A stretch of 64,000 nucleotides of DNA from an uncultured cyanobacterium (lineage in GTDB: Bacteria > Cyanobacteriota > Cyanobacteriia > Phormidesmidales > Phormidesmidaceae), in NCBI GenBank assembly GCA_963793265.1, contig CAWBZI010000007.1, positions 288,001 to 352,000 of the forward strand. Direction: 5' to 3'. The notes under the pieces were generated by a model, which searched no databases, was not told where the DNA came from, and saw nothing but the letters and a program-made list of their open reading frames with translations. Shown here one piece after another: positions 1 through 35,215 of the stretch. The translations under genes were made by a program, and so were the position numbers. Each line of letters starts with the position of its first letter. Within the stretch, counting starts at the first letter, position 1.

Positions 1-1214
1 AAATTCCAGACGGCGGTGAGTGCGATCGCAATCAAATTAGCCACGTACACTAGGCTACCGGCAAAGATAAAGTGATAGATCAGCTTCAGCAGCAGCACGT
101 CTAAAACCAGCCCAATAAAGCAGACAATATTGAACTTGAGCAGGCGCTTGAGGCGCGATCGCCAGCCTCTTTGGCGTCGTGCCATATCTGCAAACGTCCA
201 GGCATCGTTCCACAGAAAATTATTTACAATTGCAACTTCTGCGGCAATCACTTTGCTTAAGACAATACCTGCGCCAGCCGTCTCTACCAGTAAATAGAAC
301 AGCGCCATATCTACAAATACGCCGCTGAGCCCAACTAGCCCGTAGCGAATAAATCGCTCAGTCGGAAACGTTGTTTTAGATCTAGAAACGCCACCGCCTG
401 AACGTAATCTTGCTAGGTGGCCTAGATACTCTACGTATTGCTTCCAAGTAACTTTACTCTCGCCCGACTCGCGCTCTTGAAACACGTAGCCAGCTTCAGC
501 AATCTCACCGATATTGCCTCGGCCAATCACTTCCAAAAGAATCTTGTAGCCAAGCGGATTGAGATGAGGCCCAGCGATCGCACTTCGGCGCACCATAAAG
601 TAGCCGCTCATCGGATCGCTCACTCGCCCCACTACTGCCGGACACACTACCAGCCCGAGTAGCTGAGCGCCCCGAGATAGAAAGCGCCTAACAACGCTCC
701 AATCGCTGACCCCACCGCCTTCTACATGGCGACTCGCCACCGCTAAGTCTGCACCGTCTAAGGTGGCCTGTAATAGCTTTAATAAGACTTCTGGTGGATG
801 CTGAAGGTCGGCATCAATAACACCTAATATTTCGCCTCTGGCAACCTGCCAGCCGCGAATAACGGCAGAAGAGAGTCCGCGTTCGGTTTGGCGACGCATC
901 ACCTGTAGCTGTGGGTACTGTTCGGTGAGGGCCTGGGCGACTTGCCAGGTGCGATCAGGGCTATTATCATCTACCAAAATTAGCTCGTAGCGGTTGGGGA
1001 TGAAGCCATCGAGGAGATTGGCAAGCTGAGCGACGATTTTATCGACGTTGCCGCGTTCGTTGTATGTCGGAATAATCAACGAAAATTGTATAGATCGGCT
1101 GGTGCTGGGTAAATTGTGAGGAGATGACGCTTTAGCAAACACCTCTGCTGCGGTAGGAGCGGCAAAGGGCACCTGCAAGGGGCCTTGCGGCGGTGTAAGC
1201 AGCGGATGAGTCAT
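1..1214 (-). CDS. Polyprenol-phosphate glycosyltransferase (GT2, Dpm1-like) fused to a C-terminal GtrA domain; 3' end runs off the window
   Basis: Not in the ORF track because no stop falls in the window. Manual minus-strand translation from ATG at 1214 gives FSLIIPTYNE, LILVDDNSPDRT, GVIDADLQHPPE, SDPMSGYF, then GtrA-like RFIRYGLVGLSGVFVD and NNFLWNDAWTFAD. Confidence 0.9.
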   Translation of the reverse strand, partial: MTHPLLTPPQGPLQVPFAAPTAAEVFAKASSPHNLPSTSRSIQFSLIIPTYNERGNVDKIVAQLANLLDGFIPNRYELILVDDNSPDRTWQVAQALTEQYPQLQVMRRQTERGLSSAVIRGWQVARGEILGVIDADLQHPPEVLLKLLQATLDGADLAVASRHVEGGGVSDWSVVRRFLSRGAQLLGLVVCPAVVGRVSDPMSGYFMVRRSAIAGPHLNPLGYKILLEVIGRGNIGEIAEAGYVFQERESGESKVTWKQYVEYLGHLARLRSGGGVSRSKTTFPTERFIRYGLVGLSGVFVDMALFYLLVETAGAGIVLSKVIAAEVAIVNNFLWNDAWTFADMARRQRGWRSRLKRLLKFNIVCFIGLVLDVLLLKLIYHFIFAGSLVYVANLIAIALTAVWN

Positions 1215-30160: not shown

Positions 30161-31921
30161 TCACGGCAGTAGGGCCGGATTCCTGACGTTTGAGCCGATA
30201 CTTGCAGATTGAGAGATTAAGTCAGCGAGTAGGCGGTTGAGGGCGCTGGTGACGGCGTAGAAGGAGGCTGTGACAATGCTGGTGTGGATGCCAATGCCGT
30301 AGCTAGCGCCTTGGGGCGTCGTGATTTCGATTAGGGCGATCGCCTGACTTTGGCTACCCTTGGGCAGATCGCCCGGACGAGTCGGCAGGGCCATTTTCAG
30401 CGATCGCTCCTCATACCCGCTCACCTGCATTTGGCCGAGGCGATCGCCTAGTTGGCTACCATTCAAAGCCGCTACCAAAGCGTCAATTGGCCCATTGCCT
30501 TCACCTTCTAGCGTATGCTCACAGCCCTCAATCTCGACACAGACCGCTATCTGCGTGCTTCCTGCTTTTGTTGACACGCACTGATGAGAACAGTATGTCA
30601 ACGGCCCGGTAGCTCGAAGATATTCTGCCTTGAAAATCTGCCAAATCACGTCAGCAGTGACCTCTTTCCCACTATCTTCTACGGCCCGCTGCACTATCCG
30701 ACTGAACTCTATTTGCAGCCGTCTAGGAAGCACCACCCCATAATCTCTTTCTAGCAAAAAGGCAATGCCTCCTTTGCCCGACTGACTATTTACCCGCACA
30801 ACAGATTCGTAAGAGCGCCCCATGTCCGCTGGGTCTATGGGTAGGTAAGGAACCGCCCATGTATCTTCAGGCTGTCTTGCAGCAAAGCCCTTTTTGATGG
30901 CGTCTTGATGAGAGCCTGAGAAAGCAGTAAAAACAAGTTCGCCTGAGTAGGGGTGGCGTGAATGAACCGGCAGCTGGGTACAGTCTTGGGCAACTTGAAC
31001 AATGTCGTCTATACGAGAAAAATCTAGACCCGGCGAAATGCCCTGCGTGTACAGATTCATCGCTAGCGTCACCAGATCGACATTTCCCGTCCGTTCGCCA
31101 TTGCCAAATAAGCAGCCCTCTACCCTCTGCGCGCCAGCCATTTGAGCCAGTTCAGCAGCAGCCACGCTACAGCCCCGATCGTTGTGAGGATGCACGCACA
31201 GCACCACGGCCTCGCGGTAGTCAAGGTGGCGATGCATCCATTCCACCTGATCGGCAAAAACATTAGGGGTGGATACTTCTACGCTGGCTGGAAGGTTGAT
31301 GATTGCTTTTGCTGCAGATGTAGGCTGCCACACGGCCAGCACTTCATTGCAAATCGCTTTGGCAAAAGGCAGCTCGGTTGAGGTAAAAACTTCGGGAGAG
31401 TACTGAAATCGCCAGGCGGTTTCATGTTGGGCAGTCGCTAGCTCTTTGATGAGGGCAGCGGCATCGGTTGCTAAGCGAATAGTGCCTGAGCGATCGAGAT
31501 TGAAAACAACTTTTCGGAAGGTGGGCGCAGTGGCATTGTATACGTGAACGATCGCCTGCTTAGCGCCTTTTAGAGATTCAAACGTACGGCGAATAAGGTG
31601 ATCTCTAGCAGGGGTAAGAACCTGTAGCGTGACATCGTTAGGAACTAGATTTTGCTGTATGAGGTGGCGAACAAAATCGAATTCTGTTTGAGAAGCACCA
31701 GGGAAACCGACTTCGATTTCTTTGAAACCAATATTGATCAAGGTGTGGAACAGGCGCAGCTTGCGAGCGATACTCATGGGCTCAATGAGCGCTTGATTGC
31801 CATCACGTAAATCGGTACTGAGCCAGGCTGGCGGCTGCGTGATGGTTTTGCTCGGCCAGGTGCGATCTGCGAGATTAATAGGCGTAAATGCGGCGTACTT
31901 GCTATTTGGTTGAGTCAACAT
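30161..31921 (-). CDS. leuA: 2-isopropylmalate synthase, yeast/actinobacterial/proteobacterial type
   Basis: RTWP, STDLRDGNQAL, QYSPE, HPHNDRG, GNGERTGNVD, AFSGSHQDAIKKG, PYLPIDP, RVNSQSGKGG, GNGPIDA. Confidence 0.95.
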   Translation of the reverse strand: MLTQPNSKYAAFTPINLADRTWPSKTITQPPAWLSTDLRDGNQALIEPMSIARKLRLFHTLINIGFKEIEVGFPGASQTEFDFVRHLIQQNLVPNDVTLQVLTPARDHLIRRTFESLKGAKQAIVHVYNATAPTFRKVVFNLDRSGTIRLATDAAALIKELATAQHETAWRFQYSPEVFTSTELPFAKAICNEVLAVWQPTSAAKAIINLPASVEVSTPNVFADQVEWMHRHLDYREAVVLCVHPHNDRGCSVAAAELAQMAGAQRVEGCLFGNGERTGNVDLVTLAMNLYTQGISPGLDFSRIDDIVQVAQDCTQLPVHSRHPYSGELVFTAFSGSHQDAIKKGFAARQPEDTWAVPYLPIDPADMGRSYESVVRVNSQSGKGGIAFLLERDYGVVLPRRLQIEFSRIVQRAVEDSGKEVTADVIWQIFKAEYLRATGPLTYCSHQCVSTKAGSTQIAVCVEIEGCEHTLEGEGNGPIDALVAALNGSQLGDRLGQMQVSGYEERSLKMALPTRPGDLPKGSQSQAIALIEITTPQGASYGIGIHTSIVTASFYAVTSALNRLLADLISQSASIGSNVRNPALLP

Positions 31922-32090
31922 AGGATGGCTGTGAATAATTGTATTGGGGTGGTTTTTGTTTGTGCATAGATGAGGCGGCAGCGATGCAGCGAGTAAGCGC
32001 TAGGTTGAGCGATCGCAGGGTCTAAAACGAATGCAGCCTAGCGGCACAAGGAAGTGAGCCGCAAGAAAATGACTGGTTGTAAAAAAGTAA

Positions 32091-32168
32091 TTATGCGCGC
32101 CCGCGCAGCAGCTTCAGCCCAATAAGGCTAAAGCTAAGCTTGTAGAGAGGTGCAGGCCGCTTGTTCAT
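32091..32168 (-). CDS. Putative leuA leader peptide MNKRPAPLYKLSFSLIGLKLLRGRA (25 aa, 6 Leu)
   Basis: ATG 32168 to TAA 32091 on the leuA strand, ending 169 nt before the leuA ATG. Leu codons CTC, CTT, CTT, CTG, CTG, CTG. Overlapping alternative stems lie downstream. Confidence 0.7.
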   Translation of the reverse strand: MNKRPAPLYKLSFSLIGLKLLRGRA

Positions 32169-33073
32169 AGGTCTTTTGCATCGGTAGCCCCATTTAAGCA
32201 CAGACTAAGCATAGGCTGAACGCAAAAAATCTGGGTTTCCAGCATCTAGGTCTGTAGCATACTTATTATCATAAAAACAGACCATCACATCACCGTATTA
32301 TGCACAAACAAACAGTCGTAAATGAGTGCTTTCCTAATACAAAAATGGTCTTCCATTGAGGTTTGTATACTGTTCTTCTAAAAAGAGCGTATAGAGTGCA
32401 CAGATTGATTTTTTGACCTTTTGAGAGTTCTCATGTTTGCTTCAAGCGTTACGGGTGCTTAAAGATACAGGCAATAATAAAATGCTCAGTACCCAGGTTA
32501 AAATTTTTTAGAAGATCCATTATTTATTATGGTAATCGTGTATGCTTCCTTTTATAAACGCAATGGAAGCTTAGACATTGCTCATTCTATTGGTGCTTAT
32601 CTACATTAGAGTTCATAAAAACCTTTCTAACTAAGCAAGCATCGGCGTTTGTGCAGTAAGTAAGGGATTGCAAAGATTGTGATTGGAATGATCTAAAAGT
32701 AAAAAGCATACATTTATTGCAATATCTGCTTTTGCAACTATCTTGTAGAAGGGCGATCTTCTTGAGTTAATTGAGACAGGTTACGTAGAGCTTTAATGAG
32801 TCTGATAGGTTGCTGCTCAATTGTTTAAGTAAGGGTTAGGCTGGCTGTCTACAAGGGATTAAGTTGCTGTTGTGATAAGCGGCCTAATTTATTCGGCTGT
32901 TTTGTGAAAGTTAGATAGGCAAAAGTAGGTGAGCTTAGGAACTCATTGCGTTAGATAGAAGACTTTAGCTTTAGTATCAACGTTTGAAATATAAGCTTGG
33001 TGCTAACCACTGAATATCCGTAGGTGAGTTTGGCTTTGGCTTTGCGTGGTTTTTAAAGAGGGTTGCTGCTACT

Positions 33074-35215
33074 TTGGCAGATGAGGATGTGAATGTGGAT
33101 TTGACGACTGCGCTGAAGTGGCTGAACGCTGCGGTGATGAATGGTGTTGGGCATCCCTTGCGAGAGCCTGAGATTGTGATATTGAAGGGCACCTGGCGAG
33201 GGTTGACGTATGAGCAAATGGCAGGCGGATCGGACTACAGCACTAATTATCTGATGCGGGACGTGGCTCCTAAGCTATGGAAGCAGCTTTCGAGCGTGTT
33301 TGGGCGCTCGGTCGGCAAGACTAATTTTCGAGTAGCGCTAGAAGCCTACGCCGTTTCTAATAAGGCGCTTGCCTCTGAAATTGCTGCTTCGAACTTTGGC
33401 TTTACGCCCGATTTTGAAGCAGACGTGATGCATAGCCGAGAGCAAGGTCGAGATGCGTTTGAGGGGCCTGGAAGCTCAAAAAGAAGCTTGGACAGTGGTA
33501 GTGGAACGACAGGCACGGACTACAGGCATCCTTCTATGCTTGGAAATGCCTCAGCTAGCGGCGGATATCGTGGACTAGCGATGCCTGTAAGTTCGGAGGC
33601 ATTGATGTATGGATATGAAGATGAGCTGGCTCAGATCAAACAGTGGATTTGTGAGGGCATTGGAGAAAGCTCCCTCTTAGCAGGCACCTCTTCAGGTGTG
33701 CTAGTGGGCCTGTGGGGCCTGTGCGGCGTTGGTAAAACGCTGCTGGTTGAAAAGGCGATCGCTCAAGTCGGCGATCTTGTTGAAGGCGTTGTGTGGCGAT
33801 CGCTACAGTCTCAACCCAGCTTGAACGACCTGAGCGCCAGCATTTTATCCAGCTTGGGGATTCGGTTAGCTGAGGCTCAAGCCGCCATTGCGCCTGCTCA
33901 GCTGATCGCGCTGATGAACCAGCGATCGCTTCTAATTGTTTTAGAAGGGGCAGAGGCGCTGCTACAGCCCGGCGTGCTTGCAGGCGACTATCAGCCAGCG
34001 TTTCAGGCATACGGTGAGTTTTTTCAGTCGGTATTGGGATCGCGTAGCTGTGTAATTATGACAGGTATTGAAGGGCCTGCTGAGCTGGTGCGCCAGGGTA
34101 GCTATAGCCAGCGGCAAGGGGTGCGATCGCTTTATCTCAAGCGGCTTCCAGAAGCGGCTGCGATTTCCCTTTTGCAAGCTGAGTCGAATCAGCAAGCGTC
34201 TTCGGCTGAGCACTGGTCTGAGCTGATTGCCCGCTACCAGGGTCACCCGCTGGCGCTGAAGTCAGCCGCTCGGGTCATTCAAGAAATTTTTAATGGCCGC
34301 GTCGATCAGTTTTTGCAGCAGGGGTCTGTATTATTCACAGATATCTTGCGGCTGCTCTCGCCGTCTTTTGAACGACTGTCTTCATCTGAATTAGATATTC
34401 TCTACTGGTTAGCCAGCCAGGAAGCGCCGATTAGCTTGGTTGAACTTCAGCAGACGCTCCCGAGATCTGTGGCGGCGAACGAACTGATCTCAGCGCTGGA
34501 CTCATTGAAGCAGCGATCGCTCCTGAGCATCCATACTGATAGCGAGGATCTGCCGACCTTCTATTTACCTGCGCTGATAAAAGCGTATGCGGTGCATCGA
34601 TTTATGAATCGATTTGGTGAAACGCTTACCGCTGACGCCATCGGAGAAAAGCGCAGCAGCGAGCCGTTAACCCGATTGAGCGCCCAACCAGCCTATAGCG
34701 ACCCCAATCAGGTGATTGACTTAAGCCCGCCAGCCGCCACGCGCGTACAGCTCAGCCAGTGGTTTCAGGGACAGTTTGAAGCCGATTGGCAGTCGCTAAA
34801 CCGTCTATTTGAGGCGTCTGCGCGTCCGGCACTGCGGCTGCGTAATGCTTATCATCTGCAAGATGAAACATTTATTAAGCGCTGTAAGTCAATTGTTTTA
34901 TCTAAAGAAAATCAGGCCAGCAGTCGGGTAAGTGCCTCTAAACCGGCGGCGGTACTCCTAGTGGCTATTCATCAAGATGGTGAGAATCTGTACAAAATCT
35001 GCGTACAGGCTCAGCCTCCCAAAGACGCTAGCGTGCTGCCCGAGCACCTGGCGCTAAAGCTACTAGATAATCAGCAGACTGTTTTGGCTACGGTCGTTGC
35101 TCAGCAAGACGACACGTTCATTCAACTGCCCTACTTTCGAGGGGCCGTGGAAGAACCTTTCTCCATTGAGCTGAGCCTGGCAGATAGTCATCATACAGAG
35201 ACTTTTGTGATATAA
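33074..35215 (+). CDS. N-terminal HTH + NB-ARC (STAND) ATPase + C-terminal DUF1822-like domain
   Basis: ILKGTWRGLTYEQMA...APKLWKQLS...VGKTNF HTH-like region; Walker A GLCGVGKT; VVWRSL; GHPLALK; C-terminal LSQWFQGQFEADWQ...ICVQAQP...FIQLPYFRG...ETFVI. Start uncertain. Confidence 0.8.
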   Translation: MADEDVNVDLTTALKWLNAAVMNGVGHPLREPEIVILKGTWRGLTYEQMAGGSDYSTNYLMRDVAPKLWKQLSSVFGRSVGKTNFRVALEAYAVSNKALASEIAASNFGFTPDFEADVMHSREQGRDAFEGPGSSKRSLDSGSGTTGTDYRHPSMLGNASASGGYRGLAMPVSSEALMYGYEDELAQIKQWICEGIGESSLLAGTSSGVLVGLWGLCGVGKTLLVEKAIAQVGDLVEGVVWRSLQSQPSLNDLSASILSSLGIRLAEAQAAIAPAQLIALMNQRSLLIVLEGAEALLQPGVLAGDYQPAFQAYGEFFQSVLGSRSCVIMTGIEGPAELVRQGSYSQRQGVRSLYLKRLPEAAAISLLQAESNQQASSAEHWSELIARYQGHPLALKSAARVIQEIFNGRVDQFLQQGSVLFTDILRLLSPSFERLSSSELDILYWLASQEAPISLVELQQTLPRSVAANELISALDSLKQRSLLSIHTDSEDLPTFYLPALIKAYAVHRFMNRFGETLTADAIGEKRSSEPLTRLSAQPAYSDPNQVIDLSPPAATRVQLSQWFQGQFEADWQSLNRLFEASARPALRLRNAYHLQDETFIKRCKSIVLSKENQASSRVSASKPAAVLLVAIHQDGENLYKICVQAQPPKDASVLPEHLALKLLDNQQTVLATVVAQQDDTFIQLPYFRGAVEEPFSIELSLADSHHTETFVI

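Follow-up and report, generated by a model that had tools for sequence, protein, structure and literature searches.

The yeast-type leuA gene of an uncultured cyanobacterium is preceded by a leader which, judged by comparison with its relatives, is real, widely conserved and of unusual build, and for which a leucine-sensing function is putative. The leader was analyzed in a window of 64,000 nucleotides (contig CAWBZI010000007.1 of assembly GCA_963793265.1, family Phormidesmidaceae), the numbering of which is used throughout, and it comprises a short, leucine-rich upstream open reading frame (uORF1) together with the RNA helices that lie within it. A homologous uORF was detected on the leuA strand in 76 of the 77 assessable yeast-type leuA loci, which belong to cyanobacteria of many families. 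Such conservation places uORF1 far above chance, and we regard it as a genuine element. A first-pass annotation, made from the window alone, had described an ORF with 6 Leu among its 25 residues, located on the leuA strand 169 nt ahead of the leuA ATG, and had proposed looking for its counterparts upstream of yeast-type leuA in other cyanobacteria; the ORF was confirmed upon re-reading the sequence, and the counterparts were found.

The gene that follows the leader encodes a 2-isopropylmalate synthase of the yeast/actinobacterial type, which scored 725.2 bits against TIGR00970 (cut-off 697.4) and matched the M. tuberculosis LeuA (1SR9) over residues 12-564 (E 1.9e-174). Genes of this type were present in 74 of the 401 sampled genomes of the class, representing 34 of 169 genera. 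The same genome carries a second leuA, of the bacterial type (G000:C2:339082-340605; 771.8 bits versus a cut-off of 598.7), for which no Leu-run uORF was detected within 400 nt upstream. The leader thus belongs to the accessory, yeast-type enzyme. On its other side, the leader is separated from a divergent ORF of 713 aa (33074-35215), which lacks an NCBIfam match, by some 900 nt of A+T-rich intergenic sequence (32169-33073) with small ORFs only and no Rfam match.

Table 1. Coordinates of the leuA leader and of neighbouring features in the window.
Feature	Position	Strand	Description
uORF1 (leader ORF)	32091..32168	minus	25 codons plus TAA, peptide MNKRPAPLYKLSFSLIGLKLLRGRA*; ATG at 32168, stop codon at 32093-32091; covariance model R1, 20.4 bits, E 6e-5
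P0 5' strand	32150..32160	minus	GCGGCCUGC.C, codons 3-7; pairs with 32106-32095 in the MFE fold
P1 hairpin	32110..32135	minus	AGCUUUAGCCU / loop UAUU / GGGCUGAAGCU, 11 pairs; MFE and centroid folds
Control codons	32106..32117	minus	CTG AAG CTG CTG (L-K-L-L); 3-4 consecutive CTG here in relatives
P2 hairpin	32094..32107	minus	UGCGC-GGGC-GCGCA; found by terminator-like scan; dG -7.5
P0 3' strand	32095..32106	minus	MFE fold; same bases as P2
Stop codon and A/U tract	32079..32093	minus	UAAUUACUUUUUUAC; U6 at 32086-32081
Two overlapping stems of the first-pass annotation, judged incidental	31998..32062	minus	z -1.13; no counterpart in relatives
uORF2 remnant	31902..31967	minus	MHKQKPPQYNYSQPSYVDSTK*; within the C/A-rich tract; extends 20 nt into leuA
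leuA, yeast/actinobacterial-type 2-isopropylmalate synthase	30161..31921	minus	586 aa; TIGR00970

The conservation of uORF1 was assessed within a set of 78 loci, consisting of 26 usable loci from 61 relatives, 18 from the 401-genome sample of the class and 34 fetched by coordinates. One of these (L016) has only 90 nt of upstream sequence and was not assessable for the uORF. A further locus (L026), whose contig carries only the 3' part of leuA, was left out of the set, and about ten more yeast-type leuA places at contig edges lie outside it. The sole exception among the 77 assessable loci, L098, encodes a LeuA that is only 52% identical to that of the window and has an unrelated long open frame upstream.

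Among the 76 uORFs, the start codon is ATG in 74 and GTG in two, and the length is 24-28 aa in 70. The distance from the start codon to the Leu run takes nine distinct values, every one of them in frame. The peptides contain a median of eight Leu residues, and about 30% of the codons specify Leu, including those at positions outside the helices. The consensus within the window's genus is MNAQPxTLhIFSLSLNGLLLLRGRA*, and outside this genus it is MxTQQRSLxxxxSxLLGLGLLLRLGRK*. An exact 21-nt core of uORF1, CTNCTGCGCGGGCGCGCATAA, was present in 22 records of the genome collection. Of these, 21 bear cyanobacterial titles (Phormidesmis, Phormidesmidales, Leptolyngbya, one "uncultured Synechococcus" and others; Leptolyngbya sp. 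BC1307 and cf. Phormidesmis sp. LEGE 11477 are among them), and one is a metagenome bin titled Paludibacter. The uORF1 peptides of the window and of one relative matched no Pfam or NCBIfam family at E values up to 1.

The last Leu run of uORF1 comprises at least three codons in 71 of the 76 loci. Its codon usage is strongly biased: CTG accounts for 224 of the 254 Leu-run codons in the 76 loci, versus 14 of the 53 Leu codons in the leuA gene of the window. The nucleotide sequences of the run and of the helices P2 and P0 are nearly invariant within the window's genus, and the run is complementary to CAGCAG or CAGCCC close to the start of uORF1.

The helices P0, P1 and P2, conserved and covarying as judged from the aligned leaders, all sit within uORF1. 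P1 is located immediately 5' of the Leu run and occurs in the variants CAGCC/GGCUG, CUAGCC/GGCUAG, CCAGCC/GGCUGG and GACCUA/UAGGUC, such that all six modelled pairs change on both sides among 82 aligned hits. The 3' arm of P1 enters the Leu run, and in the window the hairpin can be extended by three further pairs to 32140-32107. P2, a GC hairpin, opens on the U of the final Leu codon and, in the window, closes on the base adjoining the stop codon. A hairpin with a dG of -6 kcal/mol or lower occupies this position in 72 of the 76 loci, and in 53 of the 76 the stop codon of uORF1 lies 0-2 nt past the stem. The P2 stem varies by lineage (UGCGC/GCGCA, UGCGCC/GGCGCA, UGCCC/GGGCA, CUGCGC/GCGCAG), with five of its six pairs changing on both sides. 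P0 joins the first third of uORF1 (often AUG, then CAGCAG or CAGCCC) to the region of the Leu run and P2. The first 33 nt of uORF1 are complementary to this region with z <= -1 in 64 of the 76 loci and z <= -2 in 22, the median dG of the duplex is -19.5, and four of six pairs covary, in few sequences. In the window the 5' strand of P0 (GCGGCCUGC, 32160-32152) pairs with bases that also form P2, so that P0 and P2 are mutually exclusive. The segment 32180-32075 folds with -34.7 kcal/mol (z -2.36), a value equalled by 6 of 200 shuffles.

For the covariance model R1, which contains nested helices only, 33 of the 51 leaders from other genera than the window's were used, the other 18 having been dropped for atypical length or extensions. 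In 76 of the 78 loci, R1 located the leader where it was expected. Outside the genus the scores were mostly 42-95 bits, with seven at 15-34, and within the genus they were 16-37 bits. On the R1 alignment, which is fitted by the model and leans towards it, 85.4% of the cells assigned to pairs were paired, compared to 80.1 +/- 0.5% after shuffling of columns, a test inflated by the kinship of the sequences (0 of 500 shuffles reached the observed value). In the same alignment 15 of 18 pairs changed on both sides, against 8.1 +/- 1.4 in the shuffles, and slid controls paired at 21.6-49.5%. Most of the covariation signal arises between families. With a MAFFT alignment comprising 65 of the 76 leaders as input, RNAalifold returned no structure. 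The sequence alignment shifts the Phormidesmis-type and other leaders by 3 nt off the P2 stems, and the alignment by covariance model was therefore used instead.

A search of 151 genomes of the class with R1 gave 24 hits of at least 30 bits, every one of them located just upstream of a known yeast-type leuA place. Weak hits were also obtained in genomes that lack the yeast-type gene; the two that were checked (G115 and G051) lay within long open frames, showed no leader layout and were dismissed as noise. A weak second hit in L010, downstream of leuA, was likewise rejected, as there is no leader ORF at that place. The top R1 hit in the genome of the window is G000:C7:39390-39499(-) (L105), with 22.5 bits (E 2.4e-4), slightly above the score of the leader itself. 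Searches of Rfam yielded nothing relevant in the window between 31000 and 34000 (E up to 10), nor in the corresponding loci of six relatives (E up to 0.1).

The element could be an untranslated structured RNA, serving as a site for a protein or ligand as has been proposed for the actinobacterial LEU element, in which the open frame would be a by-product of CUG/CAG and GC-rich helices. The sequence CTGCTGCTGCGCGGGCGCGCATAA is indeed nucleotide-invariant across species whose LeuA proteins are only 70-78% identical, and the C-terminal residues of the peptide vary along with the P2 stem (RGRA, RLGRK, PVGH), which suggests that the RNA, rather than the peptide, is selected there. A protein-bound LEU element is also what the authors of PMC1262725 favour in the excerpted text of that paper. 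On the other hand, the start codon is kept in all 76 leaders, the nine in-frame length variants never break the frame, and the stop codon is held within 2 nt of the end of P2 in the 53 loci mentioned above. The abundance of Leu codons extends beyond the helices, and no conserved unpaired nucleotides of the ligand-pocket type were seen in the leaders. An untranslated element is accordingly considered decidedly unlikely, and uORF1 is presumed to be translated.

In the window, P2 (32107-32094) is followed by UAAUUAC and then by the U6 tract, and the consensus scan designated P2 together with this U run as terminator-like. The first-pass annotation had seen no U-tailed terminator here, a description that no longer holds. 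The scan detected two sites in the window, versus 2.0 in shuffles, and is on its own no proof. Across the 76 loci, a U-rich tract follows P2 in 26 cases under a strict rule, which 9.7% of background positions satisfy, and in 49 under a relaxed one; in 27 loci there is no U run within 6 nt of P2. The P2 helix is 5-7 bp long, and the U run begins 5-7 nt past the stem. Under a lenient rule, 33 of the 76 loci have a terminator-like site between -20 and +130 of the uORF1 stop codon, compared to 10 in the reverse complement and 6.4 in shuffles. Most of these sites are P2 itself, and the remaining 43 loci lack any such site. A terminator, or a hairpin-stabilised pause, has this layout of a closed helix beside an A/U tract. 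Owing to this terminator-like hairpin with its U run at the end of uORF1, a transcriptional read-out is ranked first, and termination or pausing at P2 is probably the manner in which the leader is read.

Neither arm of P2 has a partner within the next 110 nt (median z about 0; z <= -2 in 3/76 and 2/76 loci), and a classical four-segment terminator/antiterminator is therefore absent; P2 has a single competitor, the upstream strand of P0. The first-pass annotation had suggested leucine-sensing control by a non-classical mechanism, either translational or based on RNA stability. The preservation of frame, start codon, Leu run and stop codon across families, together with the lack of a four-segment switch, accords with a leucine-sensing leader of non-classical type, but its restriction to translation or stability was too narrow, as a transcriptional read-out is possible and ranks first. 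Its statement that cyanobacteria lack Rho agrees with the genome under study, in which Rho was not found (best match 26.7 bits versus a cut-off of 509). To our knowledge, Rho is missing from cyanobacteria in general, and little is known of how their transcription is terminated.

A match to the sigma-70-type promoter pattern TTGA[CA]N-16..18-TAnnnT was detected within 200 nt upstream of uORF1 in 62 of the 74 loci with enough sequence, whereas spacers contain 0.025 matches per 200 nt. The interval between the end of the -10 box and the uORF1 ATG is 22-29 nt in most families and 28-116 nt in the window's genus. Judged from these matches, the uORF1 of the relatives would be located at the extreme 5' end of the transcript. 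The window itself contains no match to the pattern ahead of uORF1. Between uORF1 and leuA it has a weak promoter-like site (TGCACA-17-TACAAT, 31966-31938), one of three such sites detected where three are expected by chance.

In several families (e.g., L063, L066, L077 and L083-L089), a TTGACA-like motif is situated just 3' of the uORF1 stop codon, and in one family TATAAG occurs 18-21 nt past it (counted by eye), which may represent an internal promoter or a motif acting at the RNA level. An internal promoter directly after uORF1 is plausible for that one family, in which the spacing is variable. It was not adopted, because the Phormidesmis-type loci have TTTACA without a -10 box.

The same motifs bear on the possibility that uORF1 is a free-standing small gene, encoding a small hydrophobic peptide or a dual-function small RNA, with its own promoter and terminator and merely situated beside a separately promoted leuA. 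Promoter, ORF and hairpin with U run would then form one compact unit, and the TTGACA-like motif, with its accompanying TATAAG in one family, would serve leuA. We consider this highly improbable. The synteny is strict, all 24 strong R1 hits being upstream of yeast-type leuA with none elsewhere; the conservation of the peptide follows the RNA stems, and no Pfam or NCBIfam family is matched. The -10 box that such an arrangement would call for is missing after TTTACA in the Phormidesmis-type loci.

The interpretation that we tentatively prefer, at somewhat less than an even chance, is that the leader functions as a leucine gauge read by the ribosome, in which stalling would keep P2 and P0 open and lead to read-through, while free passage would lead to termination or pausing at P2. 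Transcription would start shortly upstream of an ORF of 24-28 codons, about one third of which are Leu codons, with the CUG run wedged between P1 and P2 and the A/U tract following P2. When leucine is scarce, a ribosome awaiting Leu-tRNA on the run would keep the 5' arm of P2 in its mRNA channel and would also occupy the 3' strand of P0; by geometry, a ribosome stalled on the run must hold both. With P2 and P0 blocked, RNA polymerase would pass the A/U tract into leuA. When leucine is plentiful, the ribosome would reach the stop codon and depart, P2 or P0 would close beside the A/U tract, and most polymerases would pause or terminate at the closed helix. P1 may delay the polymerase long enough for the ribosome to arrive. 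Since P2 would also be covered by a ribosome at the stop codon, we have to assume that the polymerase lingers in the A/U tract. The read-out at P2 is the most conjectural step of this scheme, more so than translation of uORF1 or stalling on the run. Weighing against the scheme are the shortness of P2, the gap between its stem and the U run, the loci that lack a U run or a terminator-like site and, in the window, the broken Leu run, the missing promoter match ahead of uORF1 and the promoter-like site behind it.

The identical sensor, with stalling on the CUG run, could act on mRNA stability instead of termination. Stalled or queued ribosomes would shield a short 5' end and the start codon would stay open; once the ribosomes had been cleared, P0 would sequester the AUG, and the exposed 5' tail and A/U tract would allow degradation by RNase E or J. 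We rate this as unlikely, although several features of the leader are compatible with it: the 5' UTR would be short, as the -10 box of most families ends 22-29 nt ahead of the ATG, P0 ties the AUG-proximal third of uORF1 to the region of the Leu run and P2 (median dG -19.5), and the hairpin is followed by an A/U-rich single-stranded tract. An effect on stability would, in addition, be independent of the distance to leuA, and P2 is poor as a canonical terminator. Under such a mechanism, however, neither P1 nor the placement of the stop codon at P2 has an evident role, and the enrichment of terminator-like sites (33 loci versus 6.4 in shuffles) is left unexplained.

On sequence grounds, the copy in the window is the most diverged of its genus. 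It might be a decaying relic, no longer regulatory, of an element that works in the relatives. Its Leu run is interrupted by Lys, it has no promoter match where 62 of 74 relatives have one, its uORF2 (see below) is truncated, and its R1 score of 20.4 bits is among the lowest and not the top hit in its own genome. Such decay appears very unlikely, given that the window's leader retains an intact frame with its ATG and stop codon, as well as P2 and the U run. Moreover, P1 in the window is an uninterrupted helix of 11 bp in which the window-specific Lys codon AAG pairs with an equally window-specific UUU, which suggests ongoing selection on structure.

Ribosome-mediated attenuators that respond to amino acids are textbook examples of regulation in Proteobacteria, Firmicutes and Actinobacteria. 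By its described layout, the closest known system is the actinobacterial leuA leader, as far as the excerpted texts cited here describe it. The actinobacterial LEU element (Seliverstov et al. 2005; PMC1262725) combines a uORF containing a Leu run with a pseudoknot and with a base stem in which the run pairs with the leuA Shine-Dalgarno box, and the leuA leader peptide of C. glutamicum, cg4015, contains four consecutive Leu codons (PMC4046766). According to the same portion of PMC1262725, mutations of the Leu codons in the Streptomyces leuA leader were reported to be without effect on regulation, which counts against the interpretation preferred here. The cyanobacterial leader and the LEU element, as described there, both have a short uORF with a Leu run ahead of a leuA of one and the same type, yeast/actinobacterial; in both, the run is itself a strand of a conserved helix, and no classical terminator/antiterminator is evident. 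Unlike the LEU element of that description, the cyanobacterial run pairs with the 5' part of uORF1 itself, at a distance of 127-644 nt from leuA, and the base stem between the Leu run and the leuA Shine-Dalgarno box has no equivalent in the cyanobacterial leader.

The cyanobacterial leader resembles the enterobacterial leuL (Leu_leader, RF00512) in having a leader peptide with consecutive Leu residues and a GC-rich hairpin with a U run before leuA. It differs from leuL, and from the classical trp, his and phe attenuators, in that there are no four mutually exclusive segments and no match to RF00512. In contrast to classical attenuators, the control codons abut the terminator-like hairpin, and the stop codon is at its 3' foot. 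In attenuators of the pyrBI type, the translating ribosome directly blocks the terminator, and the signal is the pausing of RNA polymerase at low UTP. The leader described here shares with this type an ORF that runs through the terminator-like hairpin, such that the ribosome would physically block its folding. Unlike in the pyrBI type, the signal would be ribosome stalling on cognate codons.

No report of a leuA leader or of an amino-acid attenuator in cyanobacteria was found in the full-text literature searched, the coverage of which excludes subscription journals. The accessible part of PMC8632094 describes other uORF motifs and not the cyanobacterial leuA leader. With the yeast-type gene occurring in roughly one fifth of the sampled cyanobacterial genomes, its leader would provide a natural and compact test case, which could reveal how translation is linked to transcription or to mRNA decay in these bacteria. 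The layout is unusual in that the hairpin adjoins the control codons directly and has the stop codon at its foot, and that the closing helix involves the start codon, unlike the four-segment design. The leader would also mark the accessory isopropylmalate synthase as the putative leucine-regulated one, which is relevant to the engineering of branched-chain pathways in cyanobacteria.

The distance from the uORF1 stop codon to the leuA ATG, 169 nt in the window, ranges from 127 to 644 nt across the loci, and the spacers are not conserved. Over such distances, direct masking of the leuA start codon or ribosome-binding site by the uORF1 module is excluded. In several loci the spacers contain tandem repeats that differ by species (units of 12-18 nt in 3-4 copies; L002, L003, L012, L017, L021 and L027), and by filling the spacers these render the distance between uORF1 and leuA highly variable. 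The spacer of the window is without counterpart among the relatives, and it folds no better than shuffled sequences (z -1.13; 32 of 200 shuffles equal it).

It is in this spacer that the first-pass annotation had placed its alternative structures, a GCGGC...GCCGC hairpin and an overlapping second stem, with the suggestion that covarying stems be sought across cyanobacteria. Both structures exist in the window, the hairpin (32062-32041) as 5 bp with a loop of 12 nt and the second stem (32043-32034 with 32007-31998) with 9 of its 10 positions complementary. However, they do not exceed chance expectation and are not conserved, and the covarying stems that were found are P0, P1 and P2 inside uORF1, which replace them as the relevant alternative structures. 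The C/A-rich, G-poor tract that had been noted ahead of leuA is present.

About 45 of the 77 loci have another conserved upstream ORF, uORF2, which is about 45-60 codons long (e.g., L012:1346-1504(+), L024:1343-1504(+) and L064:3138-3290(-)). It is Leu-rich, with the consensus M..L.LL.LRL..GCQ...(W/R)(H/Q)PDSP...RKRSC*, and its TGA stop codon overlaps the leuA start (ATGTTGA). Five uORF2 peptides matched no Pfam or NCBIfam family at E values up to 1, and uORF2 had no match in Rfam. The L-x-G-C motif recalls that of lipoproteins, but this assignment was rejected, as no family is matched and the hydrophobic stretch is not only short but also broken by Arg.

A broader proposal, which we regard as doubtful, is that uORF1 and uORF2 together constitute a previously undescribed, two-tier and Rho-independent leucine sensor common to cyanobacteria with yeast-type leuA. 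In the first tier, a ribosome stalled on the clamped CUG run of uORF1 would switch the leader between a closed (P0) and an open (P2) form, without a classical terminator/antiterminator pair. The second tier would be uORF2, of about 50 codons, with its covarying hairpin of 12 bp; as its stop codon overlaps the start of leuA, uORF2 would set the translation of leuA by coupling or occlusion.

The uORF2 remnant of the window resembles the 3' part (...QKYKPPQ...) of the uORF2 of its relatives, and the hairpin-bearing 5' part is absent. In the relatives, an inverted repeat of 10-12 bp is formed in uORF2 by CAGGGCUGUCAG...CUGACAGCCCUG, with the compensating variants GGGUUGUCAG/CUGACAACCC and GGGCUAUCGG/CUGAUAGCCC.
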